Source of the DNA: Thermodesulfobacteriota bacterium
GTDB taxonomy: Bacteria > Desulfobacterota > Desulfobaccia > Desulfobaccales > 0-14-0-80-60-11
Length of the DNA: 64,000 nucleotides
Assembly (NCBI GenBank): GCA_049322355.1
Contig: JBMORG010000001.1
Span: 114,337-178,336, forward strand
Direction: 5' to 3'
The translations under genes and the position numbers were made by a program. Within the stretch, counting starts at the first letter, position 1; each line of letters starts with the position of its first letter. Below are positions 8,971 to 59,423 of this stretch, one piece after another. Below the pieces are notes generated by a model. It was not told the origin of the DNA, did no database searches, and saw nothing but the letters and a program-made list of their open reading frames with translations.

Positions 8971-9017
8971 AAGCTCTTCCTTAAATTCGGGTTCTGATGA
9001 ACCTGCAAAGAGTCACT

Positions 9018-9124: not shown

Positions 9125-9131
9125 ATTCCCT

Positions 9132-9788
9132 CTAGGGCTTAAAAGACTGCAACTTATAGGTGCGGTTTTCAGAGGTTGGGGTTCCCTCTCTGGATTTTTG
9201 CTTGATGGTGACCAGGCTCTCGACTATGCCCACCTTGGGGGCATACCATTCGCAGCCCGTAACAGAGGCGCCGGCGTCATTGGAGCCCACTTGCTTAATT
9301 TTCAGACAGTCTTTGAAGGACCCGGCGGGAACCTTGACGTCCTCTGATACACTTTCAATCGTCAGGCTGACATTCAAAGGGTTGTTTCCCAACTTTGTGG
9401 TCATATTCCAGCTGTTGCCCTCGGCGATGGGAAACCTGAGATGACATTCTTTCGGAGTAACCAGGGTCGGCGTCCCCTTTTCGCCGATTTGCTCGGCATA
9501 GCGATAGACCCCATAATCATCCTTTTCCATAAATTCAATGAAGATGTGCCCGCCCAAGTCCCATCGGCGCGGGGTAACTTTCTTGCCCTGTACCTCCCGA
9601 GGCGCCAGGTTGGTAATGATTAATTTTTTCGTATCGCTCTTATCCGATATGACAATATACTCCCAACGCATGCCTTCTTTGAGGGGATAGTAGGACTCAC
9701 CGAGTTCATCGCACCAGGCACTGCCGGCCGTTACCAGAGAAAAAGCGATTACTAAGGAGGTGATGATCCCTGTAGTTCCCATGGCCAC
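9132..9788 (-). CDS. hypothetical secreted protein
   Basis: 218 aa. N-terminal signal-like MAMGTTGIITSLVIAFSLVTAGSAWC and a beta-rich body. Visibly lower GC than the flanking argH and argG. I recognise no motif. Confidence 0.55.
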   Translation of the reverse strand: MAMGTTGIITSLVIAFSLVTAGSAWCDELGESYYPLKEGMRWEYIVISDKSDTKKLIITNLAPREVQGKKVTPRRWDLGGHIFIEFMEKDDYGVYRYAEQIGEKGTPTLVTPKECHLRFPIAEGNSWNMTTKLGNNPLNVSLTIESVSEDVKVPAGSFKDCLKIKQVGSNDAGASVTGCEWYAPKVGIVESLVTIKQKSREGTPTSENRTYKLQSFKP

Positions 9789-9875
9789 CTCGTCTGGAAG
9801 TTCGAGATTTAAAGTTCAAAGTTCAGAGTTTTAAACTCAGACTTGAGTTTTGAAGCGTTGGCCTTGATCCTTAAA

Positions 9876-11078
<1,203 letters not shown>

Positions 11079-38046: not shown

Positions 38047-39465
38047 TTACCAGCCGTAGGTCAGGAAGTCGTGGATGGAGTTTGAGGCAATGCGTCCCGC
38101 GCCCATGGCCAAAATGACGGTGGCGGAGCCGGTAACGATGTCGCCGCCGGCCCAGACTCTCGGTTTCATGGTTTTGCCGGTCTTGGGGTCGGCCACGATG
38201 TAGCCCCATTTATTCAGGGCCAGGCCCGGGGTGCTCTTGGTGAGCAGGGGGTTGGAGCCGGAGCCGATGGAGATGACCGCGGTGTCGATTTCCACCACGA
38301 ATTCTGAGCCCGGGATTGGCACCGGACGCCGCCGCCCGGAAGCGTCGGGTTCACCCAATTCCTGGCGCAGGCACTCCACTCCGGTTAAACGCCCGGTGGT
38401 ATCGTCGCCCAGGAAGCGCACCGGGTTGGTGAGCAGCAGGAACTCGACGCCCTCTTCCTCGGCGTGGTGGACTTCCGCTGTCCGAGCGGGCAGCTCGTCA
38501 TGGGAGCGCCGGTAGATGATGTAGGAATGTTCGGCCCCCAGCCGCAGGGCGGTGCGGGCCCCGTCCATGGCCACGTTGCCGCCGCCGAAGGTGGCTACGT
38601 TTTTGCCCCGGACGATAGGGGTGTCATAGTTGGGGAAGTCGTAGGCCTTCATGAGGTTGGAGCGGGTGAGATACTCGTTGGCGGAGTAGACCCCGATGTA
38701 GTGCTCGCCGGGAATTTTCAAGAATACCGGCAGGCCGGCGCCCACACCCAGAAAGACGGCGTCGAAACGTTCCAGCAATTCATCCACGGTCTCTGAGCGG
38801 CCGATGACCGAGTTGACCTCGATCTTGACTCCCAGTTGTTCCAGGAAATTGCACTCCTGGAAGACAATGGCCTTGGGCAGACGGAATTCCGGGATGCCGT
38901 AAAGCAGCACCCCGCCGGGACCGTGCAGGGCCTCAAAGATGGTGACGTCATGGCCCTTGAGGATCAAGTCGCCGGCCACGGTCAGGCCTGCGGGGCCTGC
39001 GCCTACTACCGCCACCTTCTTGCCGGTGGGGTCGGCCTTGGGAGGCAAAATCTGCCTGCCGTGCTCCCGCTGGTAGTCGGCCGCGAAGCGCTCCAGGTTG
39101 CCGATGGCCACCGGCTCGTCCTTCTTGCCGACGATGCACATGCCTTCGCACTGTACTTCCTGGGGGCAGACCCGGCCGCACACCGCGGGCAGGGAGTTTT
39201 TCTCCCAGAGCTTACGGATGGCGCCTTCAAAATCGCCTTCCTTAATTTTCAGGATAAACTGGGGTATGTCGATTTCCACGGGGCAGCCCTGTTTGCAGCG
39301 GGGGTCTTTGCATTGAATGCAGCGCTCCGCTTCTTTCATGGCCAATTCCGGAGTGTAGCCGTAAGGCACTTCCTCGAAATTGCGGGCCCTGACCTTGGGT
39401 TCCTGCTCCGGCATTTTTTGCCGGGGAATTTTTTCTTTTTTGGGAGCCTTTACTTCCTCAGTCAT
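38047..39465 (-). CDS. nfnB: NADH-dependent reduced ferredoxin:NADP+ oxidoreductase large subunit (GltD-like)
   Basis: Trimmed to the ATG at comp. 39463-39465 (RBS AGAAGGAGAAAG). CIQCKDPRCKQGCPVEIDIPQFI, VCPQEVQCEGMC, VAVVGAGPAGLTVAG, TFGGGNVAMD, WAGGDIVTG. Paired with the nfnA-type gene upstream. Confidence 0.8.
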   Translation of the reverse strand: MTEEVKAPKKEKIPRQKMPEQEPKVRARNFEEVPYGYTPELAMKEAERCIQCKDPRCKQGCPVEIDIPQFILKIKEGDFEGAIRKLWEKNSLPAVCGRVCPQEVQCEGMCIVGKKDEPVAIGNLERFAADYQREHGRQILPPKADPTGKKVAVVGAGPAGLTVAGDLILKGHDVTIFEALHGPGGVLLYGIPEFRLPKAIVFQECNFLEQLGVKIEVNSVIGRSETVDELLERFDAVFLGVGAGLPVFLKIPGEHYIGVYSANEYLTRSNLMKAYDFPNYDTPIVRGKNVATFGGGNVAMDGARTALRLGAEHSYIIYRRSHDELPARTAEVHHAEEEGVEFLLLTNPVRFLGDDTTGRLTGVECLRQELGEPDASGRRRPVPIPGSEFVVEIDTAVISIGSGSNPLLTKSTPGLALNKWGYIVADPKTGKTMKPRVWAGGDIVTGSATVILAMGAGRIASNSIHDFLTYGW

Positions 39466-39509
39466 TATCTTTCTCCTTCTTGACTTATGGTCTCGGCAAA
39501 AATTGTTTT

Positions 39510-40364
39510 TTAGCGGGAGCAGGAGCATCCCGGAGCGTGGCTTGCCTTAAACTGGTCGTATGAAATTTTTTCTTCCATAGTATAGGAACGCAGGCGCAGA
39601 TCCAGTTCGTCCCAATCGACGTCATGGCCTTCAAATTCCGGGCCGTCGACACAGGCGAACTTCATCTGGTTTGCGACCTTAACGCGGCAGCAGCCGCACA
39701 TGCCGGTGCCGTCCACCATGATGGGGTTGAGGCTCACCAGGGTCTTGACGCCAAAGTCCTTCGTAACCTTGCAACAGAACTTCATCATGGGCACGGGGCC
39801 GATGCAGACTGCCAGCTTGATGTCTTTATCCTTTTCCAGGGTTTCCTTGAGCTTGTCGGTGACGAACCCCTTATGGCCATAGGTGCCGTCGTCGGTGCAG
39901 ATCATCAGTTCATCCGAGGCGGCCTTCATTTTGTCTTCCAGGATGAGCAGGTCTTTGGAGCGGGCCCCGATGACGGAATAGACAAAATTGCCCATCTGCT
40001 TTAAGCCCCGGGTGATGGGGTGCAGAACCGCGATGCCGGTGCCGCCGCCAACGCAGATCACTTTGCCCACATTTTCCAGGTGGGTGGGCTGGCCCAGGGG
40101 GCCGATGACATCCAGGTAGGAGTCCCCGACCTTCAAGGTCTTAAAGAGTGCGGTGCTCTTGCCCACCACCATATAAATGATGTTTATCAGGCCCTTGGCC
40201 GGGTCGGTGTCCGCCATGGTCAGGGGGATGCGCTCTCCCTTCTCATTGGCGCGCAGGATGACGAACTGCCCCGGCTTGGCCTTGGCCGCGATTTTGGGGG
40301 CTTTTATCCAGTTGCTGACGATAGTGCCCTGGGCCATTTCGCTGCGTTCCACTATTTCAAACAT
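39510..40364 (-). CDS. nfnA: NfnA / sulfide-dehydrogenase-beta-type FAD, [2Fe-2S] subunit
   Basis: 284 aa. GQFVILRANEKGERIPLT, VGGGTGIAVLHPI, C-terminal MCGCCRV...CVDGPEF (PyrK-like 2Fe-2S cluster). Confidence 0.8.
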   Translation of the reverse strand: MFEIVERSEMAQGTIVSNWIKAPKIAAKAKPGQFVILRANEKGERIPLTMADTDPAKGLINIIYMVVGKSTALFKTLKVGDSYLDVIGPLGQPTHLENVGKVICVGGGTGIAVLHPITRGLKQMGNFVYSVIGARSKDLLILEDKMKAASDELMICTDDGTYGHKGFVTDKLKETLEKDKDIKLAVCIGPVPMMKFCCKVTKDFGVKTLVSLNPIMVDGTGMCGCCRVKVANQMKFACVDGPEFEGHDVDWDELDLRLRSYTMEEKISYDQFKASHAPGCSCSR

Positions 40365-40720
40365 ACGAAACTCTCCTTACTTCGCAAAATTTATTCCCAA
40401 TTCTGTTTGCATTATAGAGGGGCAATCCCCCGTACAGACAAATTATGGCCGCCACCCAGTTCTTGCGGGTTGGGGCTGGTGAGGCCGCCTTGCCGGGCAT
40501 AAAACCCGGATGGGCTGCCGTCAGTCCCCGGCCGGCCCCAATCTGAACCTGCCTTGATCTCTTCTACATCGCATGTTTATTACCATGACCGGGGGGATGG
40601 ACGCAAGTGATAAATATCACAAATAGAGGTTTTCTGGTTTCGGTTTTCATAATCAGGAGAGGGACGCGTCGATAGCCCAGGCTTTCCAGGATAGGGGTGG
40701 TAGGGGTTTGCCTTCTTGCC

Positions 40721-40765
40721 AAAAAAGAACCGGCTCCCAGGGGCCGCAGCCTGAGGGAGCCGGTT
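40721..40765 (-). terminator. rho-independent terminator after fhs
   Basis: On the minus strand: aaccggctccc...gggagccggtt followed by cttttttgg, about 40 nt after the fhs stop. Confidence 0.8.
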
Positions 40766-40805
40766 TGGTTATGTATAGGTGGTGCGCGGGGCGCACCTTA
40801 CATGC

Positions 40806-42590
40806 TTAGAACAGACCGGTCACGGTGCCTTTCTTGACATCCACGTCGACGCGGCGGAAGGCCGGGTCGGAACCAGTGCCGGGCATCAGAGAAATAGCGC
40901 CGCACACCGGGCAGATGAACTTGGCGCCGCCGTACACCAGGAAGTCCCGGACGGGGAGCCGCCAGCCCTTGGGGGTGCCTTTCTTGGTGGGATCGGCGGT
41001 CAGGGACAGGTGCGTCTTCACCATCATGGTGGCGTATTCGTTGTACTTGGGATCCGCCTCGAACTTCTTGGCTTTGGCCACGGCTTCGGGGGCGAAGTCC
41101 ACGCCGTCCGCGCCGTAAACTTCCTTGGCGATGAGTTCAACGCGCTGCCGCAGCGGCATCTCGTTGGGATAGAGGAACTTGAATTGCGGCTTGTCTTTGC
41201 AGGCATCCATGACTGCGTCGGCGAATTCCAGGGCGCCTTCACCGCCATACTGCCAGTGCCGGGACACGGCCACCCGGGCGCCTTCCGCTTCGCAGGCCCG
41301 GCGAATCACCGCGTGCTCTTCGTCGGAATCGAAATGGAAGGAGTTGATGCACACCACCGGGTTGATGCCGGCTTTCTTGATGGTGCGGACATGGTGCACC
41401 GCGTTCTCCACGCCCTCTTCCAGCCATTTCATGGTTTCTTTGGAGGCCGAGAAGTATTCTTTGGGGACCGGCTTGCCCGGAGGACACGGCAGAGCGCCCG
41501 CATTGACCCCGTGGTGCTTCAGGCCGCGCACGGTGGCGGTGAGGACCGAGACATTGGGGATGAGGCCGCTGAACCGGCATTTGACGTTCCAGAACTTCTC
41601 AAAGCCGATGTCGGCGCCGAAGCCGGACTCAGTGATGTGGTAATCGAACAGCTTCAGGCCGATCTGGTCGGCGACGATGGAGCTTTGTCCCACCGCGATG
41701 TTGGCGAAGGGGCCGGCGTGCACGAAGCAGGGCTGCTTCTCCACGGTCTGCATCAGGGTGGGGTTGATGGAGGGCAGCATCCAGGCGGTCATGGCATTGC
41801 CAACTTCCAGGTCGCCGGTGGTGATGGGGTTGCCCTTCTTGTCGTAGCACACCACCATGTTGTTCAGCCGGGTGCGCAAGTCTTCCAGGGAGGTGAATAC
41901 TGACAGAATGGCCATGACTTCCGAGGACACCGCGATGCCGAAGGAGGACTTCATCATGAAGCCGTCCATCTTGCCGCCCATGCCGATGATGATGTGGCGC
42001 AGGGCCTGGGCGCAGTAGTCCATGATCCAGCCCATTTCAAAGTTTTTAGGGTCGATATTCAGGCGCTTCAGATTCCGCTTGGCCAGCTGGGCGTCGTCAT
42101 AGTTGAACTCGTGCTGCAGCCGGGAAGTGGCGGCCACCATGGCCAGGTTGTGGGCGTTCATAATGTTGTTGATGTCGCCGGTCAGCCCCAGGGAGAACTC
42201 GGTCATGGGGATAAGCAGCGAAATGCCGCCGCCGGCCGCAGTACCCTTGACGTTCATGGTGGGGCCGCCGGAAGGCTGACGGATGCAGCCGCCCACATTC
42301 ACGCCCCGTTTGCCCAGGCCCTCGATGAGGCCCATGGAGGTGGTGGATTTGCCTTCCCCCAGGGGAGTGGGGGTGATGGCGGTTACTTCGATGTAGTAGC
42401 CGTCGGGTTTGCTTTTCAGGCGCTCCAGACACTTCATGTAGTCAACGCGGCCGATCTTTTGACCATGGGGGATGCGCTCATCTTTGGGGATTTCCAACTT
42501 ATCGCACATCTCGTCAAACGGGATCATCTCCGCTTCGGCGATTTCGGCAATCTGCCAGTCTTTCTGTTGTACCGGATCATACTTCGCCAT
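40806..42590 (-). CDS. fhs: formate--tetrahydrofolate ligase (long form)
   Basis: The ATG at comp. 42588-42590 is 8 nt after [26 protein letters not shown] (P-loop), [22 protein letters not shown]-terminal ...GTVTGLF. At about 594 aa it is longer than the ~560 aa forms I remember. Confidence 0.9.
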
Positions 42591-42736
42591 AAACACTGCC
42601 TCCTTAAGGTATGGTAATTATTGACTATTTTAAAAGCCATCCCCCCGGCGGCCCGGGTGATGCAAAGCATACTCTAGCCCTCCATCCCCGCTCAGGGGAC
42701 AGACCAGAGCTCATACTTTTTTTCACATAGTCCCCC

Positions 42737-42765
42737 ATATAAACGACCTCAAGTGCATTTGTCAA
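42737..42765 (-). promoter_or_regulatory. sigma70-like promoter candidate for fhs (divergent from metVF)
   Basis: Minus strand: TTGACA (comp. 42760-42765), a 17-nt spacer, then TTATAT (comp. 42737-42742). Confidence 0.4.
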
Positions 42766-42818
42766 TAAAATTTTAACTCTCCAAATCAGATAGCTAAAAA
42801 TTCTTCAGATTTTTATAT

Positions 42819-42848
42819 TTGACAACAGCCCCGGTTTCGCCATAGAAT
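42819..42848 (+). promoter_or_regulatory. sigma70-like promoter candidate for metVF
   Basis: TTGACA (42819-42824), an 18-nt spacer, then TAGAAT (42843-42848). It would give a ~170-nt leader. Confidence 0.5.
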
Positions 42849-43025
42849 TAAGTGAATAGTAGTACAAGGCTTGCCTGCTGGTCTTCCAGATGAGATTGAG
42901 ATAAGCCGGTCTGCAATCCGGTTTGGTCCCAGCCCCCGGGGTCAATTACGGGGGCCTGATTAGCACAAAGTTGAGAAATAAACAAATTTTTTTTTGCTCG
43001 GGAATAATGGAATAGGAGGAACGCT

Positions 43026-43697
43026 ATGGTTATAGCGGAATCGAAACCCCTGGCGGAAATCCTGGATATGGTCAAGGATTTCAAAAAGATCGTGGTGGCC
43101 GGCTGCAAAGGCTGCGTGACCGTATGTTGTGCGGGAGGCGAAAAAGAGGTGGCCATCCTGGCCTCCGAACTCCGCATCGCCCGCAAAGCCGCCGGGAATG
43201 ACTTGGAAGTAAAGGAATACACCTGTGAACGGCAGTGCGATCCCGAATATATCGAACCGCTGGACGACCTGGTGGACGGTGTCGATGCCGTAGTCTCCAT
43301 CGCCTGCAGCGTCGGACCCCAGTATGTCGCAGCCCGTTATCCCTATCTCCGGGTTTATCCGGGCCTCAATACCACCAGCATCGGCGGGGCTACGGAGCAC
43401 GGGGTCTGGAAAGAGTTCTGCCAGGCCTGCGGCAGCTGTATCATCGGCAATTTTGGCGGGCTGTGCCCCATTGCCCGCTGCGCCAAGCAACTTCTGAACG
43501 GGCCCTGCGGCGGCTCTTCCCAGGGCATCTGCGAAGTGGGCAAGGGCTCCATCCCCTGCATCTGGCAGCTGATTTACGATCGCCTGAAAAATCTCGGGGA
43601 GCTCCACAAGCTCACCGAGGTGCAGCTCTACAAAAATTGGTCTACCAGCCGGGACGGCGGGTTACGCACTACGATACGGGAGGAATTGAAACAATGA
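43026..43697 (+). CDS. metV: methylenetetrahydrofolate reductase C-terminal-domain (Cys-rich) subunit
   Basis: 223 aa. Multiple Cys clusters (CKGCVTVCC, CQACGSC) and the hallmark CPIARCAKQLLNGPCGG. AGGAGG RBS. Its stop overlaps the metF start (ATGA). Confidence 0.8.
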   Translation: MVIAESKPLAEILDMVKDFKKIVVAGCKGCVTVCCAGGEKEVAILASELRIARKAAGNDLEVKEYTCERQCDPEYIEPLDDLVDGVDAVVSIACSVGPQYVAARYPYLRVYPGLNTTSIGGATEHGVWKEFCQACGSCIIGNFGGLCPIARCAKQLLNGPCGGSSQGICEVGKGSIPCIWQLIYDRLKNLGELHKLTEVQLYKNWSTSRDGGLRTTIREELKQ

Positions 43698-44638
43698 CCG
43701 CCGAATACTCCGCGGGAAGCAAACTGGAAAAAATCTTCAAGAGCGGCCAGAAGGCTGTCACCGGCGAATGCGGTCCTCCCCGGGGCTGTGATGCCGAACA
43801 TTTCAGGCATAAGGCGTCTTTCTTAAAACCCGTCGTGGACGCAGTCAACGTCACCGACAACCAAACCGCGGTGGTGCGTTTCTGCTCCATGGCCGCGTCC
43901 AAGATCCTCCTGGAAATGGGCGTGGAGCCGGTGATGCAGATGGTAACCCGGGATATGAACCGCATCGGGCTCCAGAGCAACATGTTGGGCGCCGCGGCTT
44001 TGGGCATCAAGAACCTCTTGTGCCTCACCGGCGACCACCAGTCCTTTGGCGACCATCCCCAGGCCAAGAACGTGCACGACCTTGATTCCGTCATGTTGGC
44101 CCACACCTTAAAGACCATGCGGGATGAGGGCAAGATGATCAGCGGCACCGAACTCCAGGGCCGGCCCCGGATGTTCATCGGCGCCGCGGCCAACCCCTTC
44201 GCCGACCCCCAGGAATTCCGGGTGGTGCGCATGGGCAAGAAGATCGCCGCGGGCGTCCAGTTCATCCAGACCCAGTGCATCTATAACATGGAGCGCTTCC
44301 GGAAGTTCATGGAAATGGCCAATGATATGGGCCTTACTGAGAAATGCTACATCATGGCCGGCATCACCCCGCTGAAATCCGTGGGTATGGCCAACTACAT
44401 GAAGAAATTCGTCCCCGGCCTGGATGTGCCCGATTCTTACATCACTCGCCTGAAAGGCGTGCCCAAGGACAAGGTGGCCGCGGAAGGCATCAAGATCGCG
44501 GTGGAACAGATTCAGGAATGCCTGGAAATGAAGGGCATCTCCGGCATCCACCTCATGGCCATCGAATGGGAGGAACGGGCCCCGGAGATCATCGAAGCCG
44601 CCGGCCTCCTGCCCCGGCCCAAGGTGGAAGCGGACTAA
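43694..44638 (+). CDS. metF: methylenetetrahydrofolate reductase, acetogen-type small MetF
   Basis: Trimmed to the ATG at 43694 (MTAEYSAGSKLEKIF...). VNVTDNQTAVVR, LCLTGDH, VQFIQTQCIYN. The tracked upstream extension from 43235 is out of frame with, and overlaps, metV. Confidence 0.85.
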   Translation: MTAEYSAGSKLEKIFKSGQKAVTGECGPPRGCDAEHFRHKASFLKPVVDAVNVTDNQTAVVRFCSMAASKILLEMGVEPVMQMVTRDMNRIGLQSNMLGAAALGIKNLLCLTGDHQSFGDHPQAKNVHDLDSVMLAHTLKTMRDEGKMISGTELQGRPRMFIGAAANPFADPQEFRVVRMGKKIAAGVQFIQTQCIYNMERFRKFMEMANDMGLTEKCYIMAGITPLKSVGMANYMKKFVPGLDVPDSYITRLKGVPKDKVAAEGIKIAVEQIQECLEMKGISGIHLMAIEWEERAPEIIEAAGLLPRPKVEAD

Positions 44639-44686
44639 ACGCAATAAAACTTTGGTGGGGCGGGCCTCCATGCCGCCACCTCTTTC

Positions 44687-44718
44687 AAAGCCCGGTCCGG
44701 GAGGATCGGGCTTTTTTT
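44687..44718 (+). terminator. rho-independent terminator after metF
   Basis: Stem agcccggtcc/ggatcgggct, loop ggga, then a T7 run. Confidence 0.85.
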
Positions 44719-44800
44719 GCGATGAGGTTGACCAAGGTATCCGAATAAAATATAATGACCATAGTAATTTGACCATAATCAATTCTATAAGGAAAGCACC

Positions 44801-45025
44801 ATGGACTCTTTATCGGTGTCAAAATTTAAAGCTACCTGCCTGGCGGTGGTGGAAGAAGTGGCAAGATCCAAAAAGCCGGTGATCATTACCAAGCGGGGCA
44901 AGCCCGTCGCCGAGTTGATCCCTTATGAAGCGGAAACCGAGCCCGTGCCCTTGAAAGATACGGTGGCGTTCATGGGTGATATCATCTCTCCGGTGGCCCC
45001 GGAGGATTGGGAAGCACTCCAATGA
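44801..45025 (+). CDS. type II antitoxin, Phd/YefM family
   Basis: 74 aa. SVSKFKATCLAVVEEVARSKKPVIITKRGKPVAELIPY is the typical Phd/YefM N-terminus. Its stop overlaps the toxin start (ATGA). Confidence 0.85.
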   Translation: MDSLSVSKFKATCLAVVEEVARSKKPVIITKRGKPVAELIPYEAETEPVPLKDTVAFMGDIISPVAPEDWEALQ

Positions 45026-45411
45026 GGCCGGTTCTCCTGGATACTCATGTCTGGATTTGGCTTAGCATCGGCAATCTGCACGCCCTTTCCGCCCAGGCCC
45101 AACTGTCTTTAACTGGCGGAACCCGCTGGATTTCGGCCATCTCCTGCTGGGAACTGGCCAAGCTGGTGGAGCGGCACCGCATCGGTTTCACCATTCCCAC
45201 CTTGGACTGGATGCGCCGTTCCTTGAGCGAAAATCGTATCCGCATCGCGGAGTTGACCCCGGAAATCGCAGTGGAGAGCACCAGTCTCCAAGGGTTTCAC
45301 CGGGACCCGGCGGACCAGATCATTGTTGCCACCTCCCGGCTGTTGGGGATACCTTTGGTGACTGCGGATCAGAGAATTATCCAGTTCGGCGACGTGGAGA
45401 CCATCCACTAG
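45022..45411 (+). CDS. vapC: type II toxin, PIN-domain VapC family
   Basis: MRPVLLDTHVWIWL..., ISCWELAKL, HRDPADQIIVATS..PLVTADQRI carry the PIN acidic residues. Confidence 0.85.
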   Translation: MRPVLLDTHVWIWLSIGNLHALSAQAQLSLTGGTRWISAISCWELAKLVERHRIGFTIPTLDWMRRSLSENRIRIAELTPEIAVESTSLQGFHRDPADQIIVATSRLLGIPLVTADQRIIQFGDVETIH

Positions 45412-45476
45412 CGGGGCGGGCTTGGCCTCCCCGCTGCATTCGTAGGGGAAAGAGCCTCCTGCCCCGCCACTGTTCA

Positions 45477-45507
45477 AAAGCCTGGTTCGGTAGGATCAGG
45501 CTTTTTT
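45477..45507 (+). terminator. rho-independent terminator after vapC (paralogous to 44687-44718)
   Basis: Stem agcctggttc/ggatcaggct, loop ggta, then T6. It differs from the metF terminator by a compensatory C-G to T-A pair. Confidence 0.85.
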
Positions 45508-45627
45508 ATTGGGACGATTTGTTGTAGAGTGGAAACACTGAAGGTCACCAAGACCTCGGGCTGCGGCCACGAAGGCCGGCTAAATCATAAAAACTCAAAC
45601 CAATTTTCATTTTGGGAGAATTTCATA

Positions 45628-47520
45628 ATGAATATGAAGACCCCCAAGCAATCCTCTCCGGCCCATTCCATCCACCCCGACACCCTGGCTATAATTGATA
45701 AAGCCCGAACCGAAGGCCTGGAAATTATCTGGGACCGGGCCGCAGCCCAGGAGCCCCAGTGCGGTTTCTGTGAGTTGGGGCTCTCCTGCCGCATCTGTGT
45801 CATGGGCCCCTGCCGCATCGATCCCTTCGGCGACGGCCCCCAGCGGGGCATCTGCGGCGCCGACGCCCACATTATGGTGGCCCGGAACCTGGGGCGCATG
45901 GTGGCCGCAGGCGCGGCCTCCCACTCCGATCACGGCCGGGACCTGGTGGAGACGCTTTTAGCCGTGGGTGAAGGCAGGGCGCCGGGATTTGGCATTGCGG
46001 ATCCCGCCAAGCTGGACCTTCTGGCCGCGGAGTTTGGGGTGCCGGCAGAGCTTCCCACCCTGGCCAAGGCCAAGGAACTGGCCCTGGCCATGATGGAAGA
46101 ATACGGCATCAAGAAGGGTTATCTCACCTTCACCCGGCGGCTGCCCGCAGTGCGCCTGGAGAAATGGCGGGCCCTGGGGATCGAGCCCCGGGGGGTGGAC
46201 TGGGAAGTCACCGAAATGATGCACCGCACCCACATGGGGGTGGACAACGACGCGGTCAACCTCCTGGTCCAGGCCCTGCGGGTGGCCCTGGCGGACGGCT
46301 GGGGCGGCTCCATGATTGCCACCGAGATCTCCGACGTCCTGTTCGGCACTCCCAAACCTACGGCCTCCCAGGTAAATCTGGCGGTGCTCAAAGAGGACCA
46401 GGTGAATATCATCCTCCACGGCCACTCCCCCCTGGTCTCCGAAATGGTGGCCCGGGCGGCCCAGGACCCGAACCTCTTGGCCCGGGCCCAGGAACTGGGG
46501 GCCGGCGGCATCAACCTGGCGGGCCTGTGTTGTACCGGCAACGAGGTCCTCATGCGCCGGGGCATTCCCATGGCCGGCAACCATTTGGTGCAGGAGTTGG
46601 CCCTGATTACCGGCGCGGTGGAGGCCATGGTGGTGGATTACCAGTGCATCTTGCCATCGCTTGGCGATCTGGCTGCCTGCTACCACACCAAATTTTACAC
46701 TACCGCGGCCAAGGCCAAATTCCCCGGGGCTACGCACCTGCCGTTCTCTCCGGAAAACGGCGAGGCCCTGGGCCGGGAGCTGGTGGTCCAGGCGGTGGAG
46801 AATTTCGCCCGGCGCCGGCCGGAGCGGGTGCTCATCCCCGGCGCCCCTGTGTCCCAGGTGAGCGGCTTTTCCGTGGAGATTATTAAGGCAGCCCTGGGCG
46901 GCACCTGGGACCCCCTGCTGGATGCCATCAAGGCCGGGCAAATCCGGGGCGCGGTGGGTGTGGTGGGCTGCAACAACCCCAAGGTGCAGCATGACTACGG
47001 TCACACCACCCTGACCCGGAAGCTTATTGAGAACGACATCCTGGTGGTGGACACCGGCTGCGCTGCCGTGGCCCACGCCAAGGCGGGCTTCAAACAGGCG
47101 GAGGCCGCAAGCCTGGCAGGCCCGGGCTTAAAGGCCGTATGCCAGGCCCTGGGGATTCCGCCGGTCCTGCACATGGGGTCGTGTGTGGACAATACCCGTA
47201 TCATCAACCTGGCCGCGGCCCTGGCCCAGGCCCTGGGAGTGGACCTGGATCAACTGCCCCTGGCCGCAGCAGCCCCGGAGTGGTACTCGGAGAAAGCCGC
47301 CACCATCGCCTGCTATGCCGTGGCCAGCGGCGTCTATACGGTCCTGGGGGTGGTGCCCCCGGTCCTGGGGTCCAGCGCGGTCACCGATCTGCTCCTCAAC
47401 GGCCTGGAAGCGCATGTAGGGGCTACCTTTGCAGTGGAGACCGACCCCGCCAAGGCCGCGGACCTAATCATCGCACATGTGGAGGGTAAGCGTAGGGCGT
47501 TGGGTCTGGAGGCGCGGTAA
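45628..47520 (+). CDS. cooS: anaerobic Ni-Fe carbon monoxide dehydrogenase catalytic subunit
   Basis: Start trimmed to the ATG at 45628 (GGGAGAA RBS). CGFCELGLSCRICVMGPCRI (B/D-cluster Cys), HSDHGR, HGHSP, GLCCTGNE, GSCVDN (C-cluster ligand contexts). Confidence 0.9.
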   Translation: MNMKTPKQSSPAHSIHPDTLAIIDKARTEGLEIIWDRAAAQEPQCGFCELGLSCRICVMGPCRIDPFGDGPQRGICGADAHIMVARNLGRMVAAGAASHSDHGRDLVETLLAVGEGRAPGFGIADPAKLDLLAAEFGVPAELPTLAKAKELALAMMEEYGIKKGYLTFTRRLPAVRLEKWRALGIEPRGVDWEVTEMMHRTHMGVDNDAVNLLVQALRVALADGWGGSMIATEISDVLFGTPKPTASQVNLAVLKEDQVNIILHGHSPLVSEMVARAAQDPNLLARAQELGAGGINLAGLCCTGNEVLMRRGIPMAGNHLVQELALITGAVEAMVVDYQCILPSLGDLAACYHTKFYTTAAKAKFPGATHLPFSPENGEALGRELVVQAVENFARRRPERVLIPGAPVSQVSGFSVEIIKAALGGTWDPLLDAIKAGQIRGAVGVVGCNNPKVQHDYGHTTLTRKLIENDILVVDTGCAAVAHAKAGFKQAEAASLAGPGLKAVCQALGIPPVLHMGSCVDNTRIINLAAALAQALGVDLDQLPLAAAAPEWYSEKAATIACYAVASGVYTVLGVVPPVLGSSAVTDLLLNGLEAHVGATFAVETDPAKAADLIIAHVEGKRRALGLEAR

Positions 47521-47585
47521 GGTTTAAAATTGCAGGGTGTGCAATCCACACCCTGCAATTGTAGCACTTGACAGAGGACAAAGAG

Positions 47586-48320
47586 ATGGAAGACGAGATC
47601 AAAGTTCGTTTTGAGGAACTGGACAAACGCCTGGCCAGCGCGGAAAAACGCTTTGACGACATTAAATGGTATTTCGGCGGGGTGACCGGCGTATTCATGA
47701 TCGTCTTCAGTTTGTTGACCATCATATTGAGCTGGAACTACAAAGGGGAAAGAGATTCCCTCAGGGAATTCCAAAAGGATATCAAAACCGAATTGGGCAA
47801 GGTTGAATCCCCCCCTGAAATCGAATTACTTGGCACAAATGGCTCAGCTCTGGCTAACCAGGAAATGGAGGTTACTTTTGGGAGGGAATTGTCGGTTCGT
47901 TCTAGTTGGGATCCGGAGGGAAAAGAACAAAAAGGTAACATTATTATTTTTATAAATTTTTTTCTTAGAAATGCTGGAAACGCTTCAAGTGGACCATTAA
48001 ACTTAAAATTATATACCAATGAACCAATAAAATTTAAAGATCCCACAAAAAGTACAGATGAACCAAAATTCCAATATGAAACATATTTACTCCCTCAATA
48101 CTTTGTCCCGAACGAATTGCCTGGTCGGTATTCATGTGATTTGAGATATGGCTGGACAATGGATACTGCTACTATTCCACCAAATGGCAAGTATCCCGCC
48201 TTGATTAAAGTTTTTTATGGAAAAGGGAAAATCGCCCAGGCGCATTTTACGATCGTTATTACTGAAAAGCAGCGCATGGCGCCCCCGGAGCTCCGCATTG
48301 GGCCCCCGGAGCTCCGCTGA
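47586..48320 (+). CDS. hypothetical single-pass membrane protein
   Basis: Cytoplasmic coiled-coil N-terminus, a TM helix (YFGGVTGVFMIVFSLLTIILSW), then a ~190 aa beta-rich ectodomain. Strongly AT-rich (15/60 GC at 47941-48000). The C-terminus PPELRIGPPELR is encoded by a 16-nt direct repeat. The TTG at 47568 is an alternative start. Confidence 0.55.
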   Translation: MEDEIKVRFEELDKRLASAEKRFDDIKWYFGGVTGVFMIVFSLLTIILSWNYKGERDSLREFQKDIKTELGKVESPPEIELLGTNGSALANQEMEVTFGRELSVRSSWDPEGKEQKGNIIIFINFFLRNAGNASSGPLNLKLYTNEPIKFKDPTKSTDEPKFQYETYLLPQYFVPNELPGRYSCDLRYGWTMDTATIPPNGKYPALIKVFYGKGKIAQAHFTIVITEKQRMAPPELRIGPPELR

Positions 48321-48729: not shown

Positions 48730-49053
48730 ATGGCTGAACCTCTTCAGGTAAGCGACGCAGAATTCGAACAAGAAATCCTGAAATCCGATATTCCGGCTTT
48801 GGTGGATTTTTGGGCGGCCTGGTGCGGCCCCTGCCGGGCCATTGCCCCGGTGGTGGAAGAACTGGCCCGGGACTACCAGGGCAAGGTGAAAGTGGCCAAG
48901 ATGAACGTGGATGAAAATGCCAAAACTCCAGCGAAATACGGCATCAGGGCCATCCCGACCCTGATCATCTTCAAAGGGGGGCAGGTGGTGGAACAGATTA
49001 CCGGCGCCGTCTCCCGTTCCATCATCGAGAACGCCTTGAAAAAAGCCCTCTAA
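48730..49053 (+). CDS. trxA: thioredoxin
   Basis: 107 aa. DFWAAWCGPCRAIAP. AGGAGG RBS. Confidence 0.94.
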   Translation: MAEPLQVSDAEFEQEILKSDIPALVDFWAAWCGPCRAIAPVVEELARDYQGKVKVAKMNVDENAKTPAKYGIRAIPTLIIFKGGQVVEQITGAVSRSIIENALKKAL

Positions 49054-49067
49054 GCTATTGGTCTGAT

Positions 49068-49997
49068 ATGTCTTTGTGGGATTATGATTTAATCATTATT
49101 GGCGGCGGCCCTGCCGGCCTTACGGCAGGCATTTACGCCGGCCGGGCCCGTCTCAAAGCCCTGCTTCTGGAAAAACTCATCCACGGTGGGCAGATGATGA
49201 CCACCGATCTTATTGAGAACTACCCGGGATTCCCAGAGGGGATCACGGGCTTCGATCTCAGCGACCGGATGCGGAAGCAGGCTGAACGTTTCGGCCTGGA
49301 ATTTCGCAGCCAAGAAGTAATGGAATTGAAACCCGGGAAACCGCACACGTTGGTCCTGGAAGACGGCCAACTCACCGCGGGCGCGGTAATCATCGCCACC
49401 GGGGCCCATTATCGGCGTTTGGGGGTCCCGGGGGAAGACCGGCTCGTGGGCCGGGGGGTAAGCTTCTGCGCCACCTGTGACGGCGCCCTCTTTAAAGACC
49501 AGGAAATCGCCATGGTGGGGGGCGGAGACAACGCCCTGACGGAAACCCTATTCCTGGAACGTTTTGCCAAAAAGATCCACCTGATCCATCGCCGGAACCA
49601 ATTCCGGGCCGCCAAATATCTCCAGGAGCGGGTCTTCCAGTTGGACAAAGTGGAAATTCATTGGGACAGCGAGGTCCAGGAGTTCCTGGGTCGGCAGGAC
49701 CTGGAAGCCGTCAAACTATTGAATGTCAAAACCATGGAAACCACGGTGCTTCCGCTGACCGGGGTCTTTGTCGCCATCGGCATGCTTCCCAACACAGGTT
49801 GGCTCAAGGATCTCCTACCCCTGGATGAATGGGGGTTCATTTTTACTGACGCGATTATGGCCACCGAGTATCCGGGCATCTTTGCCGCCGGGGATGTGCG
49901 GTCCAAACTCTGGCGGCAGGTCAGCACTGCCGTGGGAGACGGGTCAGTGGCAGCCATAGCCGCGGAAGAATACCTGGAACGGCTGAAGGGAGGGTAA
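49068..49997 (+). CDS. trxB: thioredoxin-disulfide reductase
   Basis: IIIGGGPAGLTAG, redox-active CATCDG, GGGDNALTE, AAGDVR. Confidence 0.93.
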   Translation: MSLWDYDLIIIGGGPAGLTAGIYAGRARLKALLLEKLIHGGQMMTTDLIENYPGFPEGITGFDLSDRMRKQAERFGLEFRSQEVMELKPGKPHTLVLEDGQLTAGAVIIATGAHYRRLGVPGEDRLVGRGVSFCATCDGALFKDQEIAMVGGGDNALTETLFLERFAKKIHLIHRRNQFRAAKYLQERVFQLDKVEIHWDSEVQEFLGRQDLEAVKLLNVKTMETTVLPLTGVFVAIGMLPNTGWLKDLLPLDEWGFIFTDAIMATEYPGIFAAGDVRSKLWRQVSTAVGDGSVAAIAAEEYLERLKGG

Positions 49998-50818: not shown

Positions 50819-51970
50819 TTAATAACGAAAGACGGCAGTGAGCAGGGCGGTGCCCGGCACTGCGGCGGGCTCCACAGCGTAGACTGTACCGCCGTGCAGC
50901 AAGGTTTGAGTGGCGGCCAGGTCCAGGAGATCGAAGCTGCCGGGCTGGGGCGCCGAATGGAGGTCCACCCGATTGGCTCCCGGGTCGTAGTCTCCCCATT
51001 GTTGGCGGCCCACGGCCACAAAGAGGAACTCCACCCGGCCGTGATAAGCTGCAGGCACAATCTCCCCGGCATCATGGGAGGTTCTGCCGGTGCCTGCCAG
51101 TTGCCGGTAGCGGGCCGCGGCCTGCTCTTGCTCCCGCTTAAAGTAAGGCTCCACCAGGTCCCAGGCCTGCCGGTGCAGGTCTTCGGGATTCACCCCTTCA
51201 GGGTTGCCGGTTACCCCACCGTTCAGCAAATGCTGGTAAGTATTGATTTCCTTGTAGATGGGCAGGAGGTACTCCACTCCGGCCAGCACCAGGGGCGCCT
51301 GGGCCTCCCGGAGCAAGTCACGCAATCCCTGGTCAATCTGGCGGAAATACCTTTGAATCCGTTCTTTGGCATCAGCCACATCCTGGCCGTGAAACATGGC
51401 GGCCCGCTCTCCTCTGGCGCCCCCTGCCCCGATGCCGGTGCGGAACTGCAGCTGTTTGATCAATTCCTCGTATTTCAGGGCGTCGGCCAGACTTTTGGGC
51501 ACCCCCTCCACATCGTCGATGGCGCTTAAACCAAAGCGGGAACCCTCGAAGAGCCTGACGGCGTTCTGGCTCAGGGCCAGGAGGAAGAACTCGTTGCCGC
51601 CCAGGAAGGTCAAGAGCGGCTTAACGTGAAAACGGTGCGCCACCACCACCAGGGGGTCAAAGGAGGTGGGCATCTGGTATAGCCGGAACATGGCGGGAGA
51701 GATGAACAAGGCCAGCCCGTCCCGTTTTTCTCTCCAGAAAGGGAGGGCCCCCAACAGCCTGGAGGCCGGTTCCAGGAGCGACTCCGCTTCCGCCGAGCGC
51801 AGGCCATAGGCCTGAAGGGATTCCTGGGCTTGACGGATCAAATTCTTCAATCGGGTGCGATCTTGTTGATTTTCCGTGGGAACCCGGTGAGTGGGCATGT
51901 AGATGGACACGCACGGCCCCAGGGGCGACTCGGTGAGAGTTCTCAACTCATCTCTGGTAAATATTTTCAT
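50819..51970 (-). CDS. eRF1-like 'baeRF' family protein (bacterial archaeo-eukaryotic release-factor-like), function unknown
   Basis: 383 aa. The N-terminus CVSIYMPTHRVPTENQQDRTRLKNL and the overall layout match my memory of baeRF-family proteins. GGAGGAGG RBS. The assignment is recollection-based, not searched. Confidence 0.45.
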   Translation of the reverse strand: MKIFTRDELRTLTESPLGPCVSIYMPTHRVPTENQQDRTRLKNLIRQAQESLQAYGLRSAEAESLLEPASRLLGALPFWREKRDGLALFISPAMFRLYQMPTSFDPLVVVAHRFHVKPLLTFLGGNEFFLLALSQNAVRLFEGSRFGLSAIDDVEGVPKSLADALKYEELIKQLQFRTGIGAGGARGERAAMFHGQDVADAKERIQRYFRQIDQGLRDLLREAQAPLVLAGVEYLLPIYKEINTYQHLLNGGVTGNPEGVNPEDLHRQAWDLVEPYFKREQEQAAARYRQLAGTGRTSHDAGEIVPAAYHGRVEFLFVAVGRQQWGDYDPGANRVDLHSAPQPGSFDLLDLAATQTLLHGGTVYAVEPAAVPGTALLTAVFRY

Positions 51971-53992: not shown

Positions 53993-55582
53993 ATGCCCAA
54001 GGAATCTATAGTTTTCAAGGCCCACGAGCTTCAGGATGGCGACATGCGGGAAGTGGTCGTGGGGAAAACCAAGGTATTGGTGGTCCGTATTAAAGGGCGA
54101 TTTTATGCCATTGGGGCGGAATGCACTCATTATGGCGGTCCCTTAATCGACGGCGCCTTGAACGGGCACCGGATAGTCTGTCCCTGGCATCAAGCTGTTT
54201 TCAATGTGATGAACGGCAACCAGGAGGAACCTCCGGCCCTGGATGCCCAGCCGTGTTACGAGGTGCGGGTGGAGGAAGGTGATGTCATTGTCACGGTGCC
54301 TGATATTGCGGAAAGCCGGCGTACGCCTTATATGGTGCGGCGTGACCCTGCCGACGGTCGCACCTTTGTGATTCTGGGGGCCGGGGCCGCGGGCAGTGTC
54401 GCCGCGGAAACCCTGAGGCAGGATGGTTTTGTCGGCCGTGTCGTGATGATCACCGGGGAGCAGCGCCTGCCTTACGACCGCCCCAACCTGAGCAAAGGCT
54501 ACCTGAGCGGGGAAGCCGGCCCCGATACCCTGCCCTGGAGGACTCCGGAGTTTTACCGGGAACACGATATCGAGGCGATTTTGGGGCGGCCCGTTGCCCG
54601 GGTGGAGCACCCACGGAAAACCCTCACCTTTGAAGACGGCGGCTCCATGTCGTATGATGCCCTGCTCCTGGCCACCGGCGGCGTGCCCCGTCCCCTGGAA
54701 ATACCCGGAGCAGGCCTGGCCAAGGTCTTCACCCTCAGGAGCGCCGAGGATGCCGATGCCATCATTGAAGCCGCAGGCCAGGCAGCTCGGGTGGTGGTCA
54801 TCGGGACTGGCTTCATTGCCATGGAAGCGGCGGCCGCCCTCACCAAGCGCGGTCTGGCTGTGACCGTGGTGGGTTCCCGGCCCGTGCCTTTGGAAAGGCA
54901 ATTGGGACCGGAGATAGGCGGGATGCTTAAGGAAGTCCATAAAGAACAGGGTGTCGCTTTTCGCCTGGGCCGGACTCCCATACGTCTGGAGGGTGCCAGC
55001 CAGGTGGAAACTGTGGTCCTGGAGGACGGGGAAGTCCTGCCTGCCGATTTAGTGGTGGTGGGCTTGGGGATTAAGCCAGCCACCGGGATGCTCCGGGGCA
55101 TCAAACTCAACGCCGACGACAGTGTTACCGTGGACCGGCATATGCGGGTCGCCGAGGGCTTGTATGCCGCCGGGGATGTGGCTCGGTTTCCGGATTGGCG
55201 GGACGGCACGCTCATACGCATCGAGCATTGGCGGCTGGCCCAACAGCATGGCCGGGTGGCGGCCCACAACCTGGCAGGCCAATGGGTGGAGTATGCCGGG
55301 GTGCCGTTTTTCTGGAGCGAACAGTTCGATCTCTTCCTCCAGTACGTGGGCTACGCCTCGAGTTGGGATGAAATAACTATTCATGGCGAGTTAAAGACGC
55401 GCAACTTCCTGGCCTACTATATGAAAGGCCCCCGGGTGCTTGCCGCGGCGGGGCTCCAACACGACCGCCAACTGGCGGCCCTGGCGGAATTAATGCGTCT
55501 GGACCGGTTGCCCTCAGCGGAAGAAGTGCGTCGGGCCCCGGGGTTTGATCCAGTGGCGCATCTAAAAACCCTGCAAAGTTGA
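53993..55582 (+). CDS. Rieske [2Fe-2S] domain fused to FAD-dependent pyridine nucleotide-disulfide oxidoreductase
   Basis: N-terminal CTHYGGPL...CPWHQAVF (Rieske ligands), then FVILGAGAAGSVAAE, VVVIGTGFIAMEAA and YAAGDVA (ferredoxin-reductase / AIF-like). Confidence 0.85.
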   Translation: MPKESIVFKAHELQDGDMREVVVGKTKVLVVRIKGRFYAIGAECTHYGGPLIDGALNGHRIVCPWHQAVFNVMNGNQEEPPALDAQPCYEVRVEEGDVIVTVPDIAESRRTPYMVRRDPADGRTFVILGAGAAGSVAAETLRQDGFVGRVVMITGEQRLPYDRPNLSKGYLSGEAGPDTLPWRTPEFYREHDIEAILGRPVARVEHPRKTLTFEDGGSMSYDALLLATGGVPRPLEIPGAGLAKVFTLRSAEDADAIIEAAGQAARVVVIGTGFIAMEAAAALTKRGLAVTVVGSRPVPLERQLGPEIGGMLKEVHKEQGVAFRLGRTPIRLEGASQVETVVLEDGEVLPADLVVVGLGIKPATGMLRGIKLNADDSVTVDRHMRVAEGLYAAGDVARFPDWRDGTLIRIEHWRLAQQHGRVAAHNLAGQWVEYAGVPFFWSEQFDLFLQYVGYASSWDEITIHGELKTRNFLAYYMKGPRVLAAAGLQHDRQLAALAELMRLDRLPSAEEVRRAPGFDPVAHLKTLQS

Positions 55583-58778: not shown

Positions 58779-59423
58779 ATGGTTGGGAAAACAGAATTTG
58801 AACTCTCTTTAACGGATTGGGCAACAATTATGCCATCTGCCTTTCAAGAAACGCTGGAGCCTTCGGGTGCCTTAGCCGAAAGGCTGGCAGGGCTGACCAA
58901 TGTCTCGACCTGCTACCAGTGTAAAAAGTGTTCCAGCGGCTGTCCCCTGACCTTCGCCATGGATTTCTACCCGGACCAAGTTATCCGGCTGGCACTGTTG
59001 GGTCAGGAAGCCCAGGTGTTGGGCTGCCGGACCATCTGGGTCTGCTCTTCCTGTGAAACCTGCACCACCCGCTGCCCCAATAACATTGATATCGCGGGGG
59101 TCATGGATTGGCTCAAGGAAGCAGCCCTTCGGCAGGGATTCTCTTCTCCCCAACCAGCGGTCACCCGCTTCCACCAGACCTTTCTGGACACGGTGCGTCT
59201 GTCCGGCGGACGCTTGTCGGAACCAGTGCTCCTGGGCCTCTACCAATGGCGGCGCGGGGGAACTCTCCATAAGCTCAAGTCCGGCGATTTGGTGGAGGAT
59301 CTTAAAATGGCCTGGGAACTGGCCCGGCGCCGCCGGCTGATGCCCAAGCTGCCCCACCGGTTAAAGGGCGTCAAGGAAATCAAGGACATCTTCAAAAAAA
59401 CCCGGACACAGGAAAAGCCGTGA
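58779..59423 (+). CDS. hdrC: heterodisulfide reductase subunit C-like
   Basis: Two ferredoxin-type motifs, CYQCKKCSSGCP and CSSCETCTTRCP. Overlaps hdrB (GTGA). The ATG at 58830 is an alternative start. Confidence 0.82.
   Translation: MVGKTEFELSLTDWATIMPSAFQETLEPSGALAERLAGLTNVSTCYQCKKCSSGCPLTFAMDFYPDQVIRLALLGQEAQVLGCRTIWVCSSCETCTTRCPNNIDIAGVMDWLKEAALRQGFSSPQPAVTRFHQTFLDTVRLSGGRLSEPVLLGLYQWRRGGTLHKLKSGDLVEDLKMAWELARRRRLMPKLPHRLKGVKEIKDIFKKTRTQEKP

Follow-up and report, generated by a model that had tools for sequence, protein, structure and literature searches.

The purified two-subunit (2S-type) methylene-tetrahydrofolate (methylene-THF) reductase MetFV of Clostridium ljungdahlii is a non-bifurcating, partner-free enzyme that depends on reduced ferredoxin; flavodoxin and thioredoxin are used less well, and an activity of 7.4 U/mg was obtained with reduced thioredoxin (PMC8515935). 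MetFV enzymes of the 2S type are also assigned to C. formicoaceticum and Thermoanaerobacter kivui (PMC8515935, PMC8578170). The six-subunit (6S-type) complex MetFV-HdrABC-MvhD is that of Moorella thermoacetica (Mock et al. 2014, as cited in PMC8515935 and PMC6295475), and the five groups of methylene-THF reductase (MTHFR) distinguished by Yi et al. include no HdrL-linked type. In Desulfobacterium autotrophicum HRM2, HdrL fuses heterodisulfide reductase to glutamate synthase and has a site that binds NAD(P)H; in 2009 it was thought to be unique to that organism and was discussed together with sulfite reduction (PMC2702500). Here we analyse a 64-kb stretch of DNA (the window) from contig JBMORG010000001.1 of a Thermodesulfobacteriota bacterium of the Desulfobaccales, which carries a metVF pair (metV1F1) at 43 kb, in one block with nfnAB, fhs and cooS, and an hdrCB-hdrL set at 58.8 kb.

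Fhs interconverts formate and formyl-THF, MetVF interconverts methylene-THF and methyl-THF, NfnAB equilibrates NADPH with NADH plus ferredoxin, and CooS couples CO/CO2 to ferredoxin. We lean towards two methylene-THF reductase systems, a bare MetV1F1 and a separate HdrL-linked MetV2F2, as the somewhat more probable state of affairs. The fhs-linked MetV1F1 has lost the mvhD and hdrA or hdrL genes found ahead of its orthologues in the rest of the phylum. It would function with its two subunits alone, using a low-potential carrier that is probably ferredoxin, and the adjacent transhydrogenase would rebalance the pyridine-nucleotide pools. The second system would be a six-subunit-like HdrC-HdrB-HdrL-MvhD-MetV2-MetF2 complex, in which the place of Moorella HdrA would be taken by HdrL, an HdrA that incorporates an NAD(P)H module resembling NfnB. 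The locus is best read as the Desulfobaccales form of a Wood-Ljungdahl methyl-branch locus. All of its components (NfnAB, Fhs, MetFV, CooS, HdrBC and HdrL) come from known families, and it is an informative variant, not a new system. The literature searched contained no paper on the Desulfobaccales arrangement; the papers describe neither the order-wide loss of mvhD/hdr linkage at fhs-linked metVF, nor the coexistence of a bare metVF with an HdrL-type six-subunit-like cluster, nor an interchange of NfnAB and Stn behind a conserved palindrome.

Every open reading frame (ORF) of at least 150 amino acids (aa) in the window, alternative strands included, was scanned with Pfam; the proteins of the core block were also scanned with NCBIfam profiles and compared with solved structures. 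Gene context was surveyed in 80 genome loci around MetV homologues, searched by tblastn with the window proteins, and in 80 metagenome loci around HdrB homologues. The nearest MetV homologues (94-98% identical) come from metagenome-assembled genomes (MAGs) labelled Desulfobaccales, Thermodesulfobacteriota or "delta proteobacterium". An original prediction, made from the DNA letters, had listed NfnAB, a long-form Fhs, MetV/MetF, a toxin-antitoxin pair and a stand-alone CooS in the block, and Pfam, NCBIfam and structural comparisons place all of them where it had put them. The reductase genes of this block and the site that follows them are:

43026-43697, plus strand: metV (MetV1), Fe-S subunit of methylene-THF reductase (PF12225, DUF5981, E = 1e-33; NGPCGG motif and Cys clusters)
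43694-44638, plus strand: metF (MetF1), flavin subunit (full-length PF02219)
44694-44722 (hairpin 44694-44712), plus strand: terminator-like hairpin and T-run after metF (motif scan)

The start of metF overlaps the stop of metV in ATGA, so that the two genes, divergent from fhs, appear to be translationally coupled. Solved MTHFR structures are distant hits of MetF1 only. The pair shares the gene-level traits of the 2S type: metV, with its DUF5981 domain, NGPCGG and two Fe-S Cys motifs, lies directly upstream of metF and overlaps it, fhs is next door, and no hdr, mvhD or rnfC2 gene adjoins. Unlike the 6S type, it has no hdr or mvhD gene within 15 kb of metV. The likeness to 2S-type enzymes is one of genes; MetV1F1 may also depend on ferredoxin. 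In one respect the pair differs from them: judged by its closest relatives, it falls into a clade of Desulfobacterota in which all other members have a link to mvhD and to hdrA or hdrL, so its bare state is derived.

Within the Desulfobaccales (MetV 78-98% identical) the gene order nfnB<nfnA<fhs<>metV>metF is kept in most complete loci. Many loci of other orders show nfnB<nfnA<>fhs>hdrL>mvhD>metV>metF, as in Desulfocarbo indianensis, whose 1490-aa HdrL has the architecture of the window HdrL and is 53% identical to it; the order in Desulfobacteraceae is hdrA>mvhD>metV>metF. Of 46 non-Desulfobaccales loci, 45 have mvhD directly upstream of metV; of the 37 Desulfobaccales loci, none has. Wherever sequence upstream of the non-Desulfobaccales mvhD was examined, hdrA or hdrL preceded it. 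On these counts the bare MetV1F1 is a derived, order-wide trait. The arrangements in other orders also support a link between HdrL-type proteins and MetVF in this phylum.

The window holds three Hdr genes, all at 58.8 kb, and these are its only ones, as had been predicted:

58779-59423, plus strand: hdrC (Fer4_8 domain)
59420-60271, plus strand: hdrB (two CCG domains)
60349-64000, plus strand, cut by the window end: hdrL (about 272 aa missing; collinear with homologues of 1489-1503 aa)

HdrL resembles HdrA but carries an NAD(P)H module of the GltD/NfnB kind as an insert, and has a further half that is again HdrA-like; its domains are FAD_oxidored (residues 12-49), Fer4_20 (159-236) and Pyr_redox_2 (252-549), with a second FAD site at 1068-1105. 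A protein search returned full-length homologues of about 1489 aa that are 86-88% identical. The architecture is the one that defines HdrL of D. autotrophicum HRM2, with the same fusion and NAD(P)H site; the mvhD that follows is seen in relatives and would lie beyond the window here. Unlike in the account given for HRM2, HdrL is linked to metVF and hdrCB, both here and in many Desulfobacterota loci.

What lies downstream of hdrL can be read in relatives. Two metagenome loci, L084 and L090, are syntenic with window positions 50.8-64 kb (69-89% aa identity), sharing the string baeRF, gap, usp, Rieske-FNR, histidine kinase, hdrC, hdrB, hdrL. Downstream of hdrL (1489 aa), L090 has genes for FlpD/MvhD, a DUF5981 protein (MetV2) and an MTHFR (MetF2), and then further hdrA-like genes; MetV2 is 45% identical to MetV1, and MetF2 32% identical to MetF1. 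The order hdrL-mvhD-metV2-metF2 is identical in eight other loci (L094, L097, L109, L130, L131, L140, L141 and L144), and hdrL-mvhD-metV2 is found in L145, whose HdrL is 61% identical. A congeneric MAG carries both systems on one 666-kb contig: metV1F1 (locus L017; MetV 94% identical to that of the window) and, about 85 kb away, the string gap, usp, Rieske-FNR, hdrC, hdrB, hdrL, MvhD, MetV2, MetF2, hdrA-like, Fer4-MvhD fusion (L164). A sequencing-run contig (L165) encodes the exact HdrL protein named by NCBI for Desulfobacca acetoxidans, in the string hdrC, hdrB, hdrL (1503 aa), mvhD, metV, metF, hdrA', Fer4-mvhD'. Every close relative whose sequence extends far enough thus has hdrC-hdrB-hdrL-mvhD-metV2-metF2-hdrA'.

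Judging from these relatives, the window probably breaks off in gene three of a six-subunit MTHFR cluster like that of Moorella, with HdrL in place of HdrA. The cluster would resemble the Moorella 6S type in its full set of subunit genes: hdrC and hdrB in the window, and mvhD, metV and metF in the syntenic and congeneric relatives. It differs in having an HdrL of about 1490 aa instead of HdrA and in its gene order, hdrC-hdrB-hdrL-mvhD-metV-metF followed by further hdrA-like and Fer4-MvhD genes; within the window the comparison covers the first three genes. The original prediction was too strong in its premise that MetVF-type reductases need an electron-bifurcating partner, because the two-subunit C. 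ljungdahlii enzyme works with reduced ferredoxin (PMC8515935). It further proposed HdrL and/or NfnAB for redox coupling of the methyl branch, to be abandoned if an hdr-mvhD set were found beside another metF copy. Both proteins do prove to be tied to the methyl branch in this phylum, but just such a set stands beside metF2 in the syntenic relatives, in the congeneric MAG and in L165. Since the hdrCB-hdrL genes of relatives head a metV2F2 cluster, the HdrL of the window most likely serves another MetVF copy.

Two further features were noticed in the clusters of relatives. In L090 (15626-16084) and likewise in L164 (14274-14735), mvhD has an in-frame TGA at the position of a Cys conserved in relatives (…FVGG*EAGSCHF…), and an independent gene caller splits this mvhD into FlpD pieces of 65 aa and 64 aa. 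Because the TGA replaces a conserved Cys, this MvhD probably contains selenocysteine. Between hdrC and hdrB, L090 has about 1.3 kb (8559-9899) with long ORFs on both strands, and the minus-strand ORF that was scanned had no Pfam hit; the window lacks this segment, and its hdrC and hdrB overlap. The L090 segment may be an insertion.

An explanation that competes with two separate systems is that MetV1F1 uses HdrL-MvhD(-HdrBC) in trans, with one Hdr module serving both MetVF pairs or mainly MetV1F1, which would then be a bifurcating or confurcating NAD(P)H-linked reductase. MetV1 has no indels relative to its mvhD-linked orthologues, so it may still dock MvhD/HdrL in trans. Those orthologues (57-67% identical) account for the mvhD linkage in 45 of the 46 loci of other orders, and their HdrL has the architecture of the window HdrL and is 50-53% identical to it; in Desulfacinum infernum hdrC-hdrB-hdrL lies 5 kb from mvhD-metV-metF, and a deep-branching relative (L036) retains hdrA-like and mvhD genes in its fhs-nfnAB string. 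However, the hdrCB-hdrL cluster has its own metV2-metF2 in all close relatives, and the mvhD linkage has gone from 37 of 37 Desulfobaccales loci. The proximity of metV1F1 to the hdrL cluster in the window is not conserved either, since about 85 kb separate the two on the single contig of the congeneric MAG. We therefore consider a shared Hdr module possible, though unlikely.

Besides the lack of indels in MetV1, two points weigh against two separate systems. The window ends within hdrL, and the presence of mvhD-metV2-metF2 in this genome is deduced from relatives with HdrL 81-88% identical. In addition, oxidation of methyl-THF by an acetate oxidiser with ferredoxin as acceptor is strongly endergonic; a ferredoxin-dependent bare MetV1F1 is thus sensible only in the reductive direction or with another carrier. 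A fuller proposal covers the Desulfobaccales, D. acetoxidans included: fhs-linked MetVF would be uncoupled from MvhD/Hdr, the bare MetV1F1 would work in a ferredoxin/NADPH module (Fhs, NfnAB/Stn, CooS) co-regulated via a lineage-specific 17-nt operator common to the divergent fhs and metVF promoters, and a mechanistically different HdrCB-HdrL-MvhD-MetV2F2 would exist beside it, each of the two possibly serving one direction of the Wood-Ljungdahl pathway. Taken as a whole, this combination seems to us doubtful, and a shade more so than the shared module.

The transhydrogenase of the block is encoded on the minus strand:

38047-39465, minus strand: nfnB, NfnAB large subunit (NADH-dependent ferredoxin:NADP+ oxidoreductase; Fer4_20 and Pyr_redox_2; TIGR01316, 581 bits)
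39510-40364, minus strand: nfnA, small subunit (FAD/NAD-binding, [2Fe-2S]; PRK06222, 403 bits)
40606-40621, minus strand: palindrome TGTGATATTTATCACT, about 240 nt upstream of nfnA, a single copy in the window

The ORF listed for nfnB reaches 39528, and its likely start is the Met at 39465. The best solved structure for NfnB is Thermotoga maritima 4ylf_B (576 bits, full length, residues 16-472), and those for NfnA are 4ylf_A (313 bits, residues 3-272) and Pyrococcus furiosus NfnI 5jca_S. Adjacent small and large subunit genes, 45 nt apart and each with full-length homologues, make this a predicted NfnSL-type transhydrogenase by gene content, like that of T. maritima, to whose 4ylf chains A and B it aligns over its full length, and like NfnSL of P. 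furiosus.

In 25 Desulfobaccales loci the palindrome (TGTGAT-N4-ATCACT) is conserved ahead of either nfnA or the Stn-like genes, and it has travelled with nfnAB in one rearranged locus (L027); three loci (L029, L030 and L035) have a second, perfect copy, TGTGAT-N4-ATCACA. It is a candidate operator at the transhydrogenase promoter for a CRP/FNR-like or Rex-like regulator; no gene for such a regulator was found in the window.

The slot after fhs does not always hold nfnAB. In six loci (L006, L007, L012, L025, L032 and L035) it is occupied by genes of the Stn/Nfn-Bfu type (at about 2.1-7.6 kb within each locus), which Pfam resolves into a NuoF-like protein and a Fer2-GltD-NuoE fusion and whose best structural matches are the Stn/Nfn-Bfu entries 8oh5, 9bov and 9n5u. 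These genes had given "hdrL-like" tblastn hits; assignment to HdrL was rejected in favour of the Stn/Bfu type on Pfam and PDB evidence, the false call arising from the shared GltD-like domain. Unlike in the known StnABC and Nfn-Bfu transhydrogenases (PMC7483475, PMC10482914, PMC12018979), the NfnB-like subunit of these relatives carries the NuoE-like subunit as a C-terminal fusion. The identical palindrome precedes either transhydrogenase type, and the fixed slot beside fhs together with this conserved palindrome is specific to the lineage. The replacement of NfnAB by Stn-type genes is non-orthologous, and a swap of this kind behind one palindrome is good evidence for selection on ferredoxin/NADH/NADPH transhydrogenase function beside fhs. 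Most complete Desulfobaccales loci have nfnAB, fhs and metVF as neighbours, and so do many loci from other orders of the Desulfobacterota. A genuine tie of NfnAB to the fhs/metVF locus is thereby supported.

Two relatives show other combinations around these genes. A Desulfobaccales-like contig (L110, 2124-13960) carries the string fhs, secreted protein, nfnA, nfnB, hdrC, hdrB and a double HdrA of 1032 aa that has no GltD insert; here NfnAB, encoded by genes of its own, adjoins an HdrA lacking the NfnB-like module that HdrL carries. The 728-aa ORF between its fhs and nfnA was considered and set aside as an unrelated secreted protein. In the deep-branching L036 (50-7544), fhs, nfnA, nfnB, a split hdrA-like gene, mvhD and an FrhB/FdhB-like gene run in one direction. 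This string may be a relic of an Hdr linkage on the fhs side.

The fhs gene diverges from metVF across an intergenic region of exactly 435 nt (42591-43025) with two promoter-like boxes and long leaders, as had been described. Transcription starts, and hence leader lengths, were placed from the boxes:

40806-42590, minus strand: fhs, long-form formate-tetrahydrofolate ligase, 594 aa (PF01268, 683 bits; PRK13507, 1017 bits against a cutoff of 938)
40721-40763, minus strand: fhs intrinsic terminator (stem CCGGCTCCC / GGGAGCCGG, then TTCTTTTTT; read from sequence)
42736-42765, minus strand: fhs promoter-like box TTGACA-18-TATATG (read directly; -35 at 42765 to 42760, -10 at 42741 to 42736)
42591-42729, minus strand: fhs leader, predicted length about 139 nt, starting with the invariant motif GTGAAAAAAAGTATGAG (42726 to 42710)
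42819-42848, plus strand: metVF promoter-like box TTGACA-18-TAGAAT (11 of 12 positions match)
42852-43025, plus strand: metVF leader, predicted length about 171 nt, starting with the motif GTGAATAGTAGTACAAG (42852-42868)

The fhs start is an ATG at 42590 with a GGAGG box. The terminator, missed by a consensus scan because its loop exceeds 8 nt, is strong, and with its own promoter fhs is predicted to be monocistronic. Among 27 aligned relatives the -35 boxes of fhs and metVF are both invariant, and the metVF -10 box is conserved.

An Rfam search of the two leaders had been suggested. No known riboswitch (such as a THF riboswitch) or leader RNA was recognised in either: the whole window gave no match at gathering score, and a permissive scan of 42400-43200 returned a chance lncRNA hit alone (E = 6.6). 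RNAalifold found no consensus structure in either leader (19-27 orthologous leaders). The metV leader, which has a U-run before the ribosome-binding site, folds no better than shuffled sequence (z = -0.4). The fhs leader has a possible 5'-terminal hairpin (z = -2.1); when drawn by hand, 71.8% of its cells are paired, compared with at most 49% when the partners are slid, and its covariation score was reached by 2 of 500 shuffles. Comparative support for this putative hairpin is modest.

Directly 3' of the -10 box, both divergent promoters have a 17-nt motif, GTGAA-N5-GTA-YR-AG. Most Desulfobaccales loci carry both copies and nearly all at least one, with a spacing of 123-129 nt, and hardly any further copies occur in 2.03 Mb of related loci. 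We infer that it is either a shared operator or a conserved 5' end. The copy after the metV -10 box was also considered as a Rex operator and rejected: the canonical Rex box needs more than three mismatches to fit, and a scan allowing three gave hits at chance level.

Between metF and the trx-trxB-bamD genes lies a gap that is a variable slot among Desulfobaccales loci. In the window it contains the following features:

44728-44756, plus strand: promoter-like box TTGACC-17-TATAAT of the toxin-antitoxin pair (motif scan)
44801-45025, plus strand: Phd/YefM antitoxin (PF02604, TIGR01552)
45007-45411, plus strand: PIN/VapC toxin (Pfam/NCBIfam)
45529-47520, plus strand: cooS, monofunctional Ni carbon monoxide dehydrogenase (CODH; TIGR01702, 683 bits)
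47530-47560, plus strand: perfect hairpin TTGCAGGGTGTG / CACACCCTGCAA directly after the cooS stop (read from sequence)

The toxin-antitoxin genes had been called vapBC. The PIN toxin bears this out for its half, but the antitoxin is of the Phd/YefM family and not the AbrB or RHH type of VapB, so the type II pair is classed by its domains as a hybrid Phd-VapC rather than a classical VapBC. The start codon of cooS is uncertain because homology begins at residue 39. Its product is closest in structure to the monofunctional CODH of Desulfovibrio vulgaris (6b6v, 795 bits, full length) and, like that enzyme, keeps all metal-cluster motifs of a prismane-fold Ni-CODH with B-, C- and D-clusters: CxxC (D-cluster), B-cluster, CCTGNE, GCNNP and GSCVDN. 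The gene differs from its D. vulgaris counterpart in having no adjacent cooC or cooF and in lying between metVF and trx instead of in a coo operon. A bifunctional CODH/acetyl-CoA synthase is not indicated, as the window has no acs/cdh genes.

About two thirds of the Desulfobaccales loci that span the gap contain cooS, and they cover the full depth of the order, with MetV identities as low as 78%; the toxin-antitoxin genes occur sporadically. The locus L002 had suggested that the pair and cooS are a recent insertion, an idea rejected because cooS has the same position across the whole order. Given that range, cooS is more likely an old resident with repeated losses. Downstream of cooS (47586-48320) the window has a 244-aa ORF with a GC content of 0.43, compared with 0.65 for neighbouring cooS; a single membrane helix is predicted, and the C-terminus carries a APPELRIGPPELR repeat. 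The ORF has no Pfam hit and, by tblastn, no homologue in 163 related loci, and so looks like a strain-specific insertion in the metF-trx slot.

The block comprises five separate transcription units, not operons, since terminators and promoters flank the genes. This raises the question of mere juxtaposition, in which cooS, the toxin-antitoxin pair and perhaps nfnAB would be there by an accident of genome history, with no functional tie to fhs/metVF. Every unit having its own promoter and terminator is consistent with this, as are the patchy occurrence of cooS and the toxin-antitoxin pair among Desulfobaccales loci, the low-GC strain-specific ORF in the same gap, and the lack of cooS beside metVF outside this order. 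Such an accident is nonetheless improbable in view of the nfnAB-fhs-metVF adjacency in several orders, the non-orthologous exchange of NfnAB for a Stn-type enzyme in the same slot, which argues for selection on function, and the persistence of cooS at this position down to 78% MetV identity.

A thioredoxin route, in which NfnAB makes NADPH, TrxB reduces Trx and Trx donates to MetV1F1, has in its favour the C. ljungdahlii activity with reduced thioredoxin (7.4 U/mg, PMC8515935), the trx-trxB pair at 48730-49997 of the window and the same pair directly after metF in relatives without cooS and toxin-antitoxin genes (e.g. L002/L028, L009, L011, L022, L023 and L035), but it is very improbable, as trx-trxB-bamD looks like a housekeeping string, the metF-trx adjacency is limited to one order and may be merely inherited, the thioredoxin activity is more than 10-fold below the ferredoxin activity in the sole enzyme tested, and metF ends at a terminator-like site.

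The remaining ORFs of the window encode housekeeping functions (Pfam): dap/lys and arg biosynthesis, hslUV, xerC, murB, argS, dinB, trx-trxB, bamD and gap. The bamD lipoprotein gene fits a diderm. In agreement with the original prediction, the window contains no acs/cdh, cooC, cooF or folD gene (Pfam, all ORFs of at least 150 aa, both strands) and no mvhD (tblastn, four MvhD queries). Two neighbours of the hdr genes are also kept in the syntenic L090 and L164: a bacterial archaeo-eukaryotic release-factor-like (baeRF) protein adjoining gap and usp (50819-51970), and a Rieske [2Fe-2S] domain fused to a ferredoxin-reductase-type flavoprotein (53993-55582).

Which electron carrier MetVF-type reductases use in the cell has long been uncertain, and the matter bears on the energy balance of acetogenesis and of acetate oxidation by the reverse Wood-Ljungdahl pathway. 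In other respects the enzymes of the locus are known ones, and the bacterium is an uncultured one from soil or groundwater. That NfnAB and Stn replace each other behind one conserved operator suggests that the transhydrogenase is functionally tied to the methyl branch. D. acetoxidans has the HdrL cluster, and its fhs<>metVF arrangement is judged from a MAG assigned to the species; as this bacterium is in culture, the two enzymes could be purified and compared, which makes the question testable. The lineage would thus offer a natural experiment, with a single genome containing one MetVF without its former Hdr/MvhD genes and another that has retained them, HdrL replacing HdrA.

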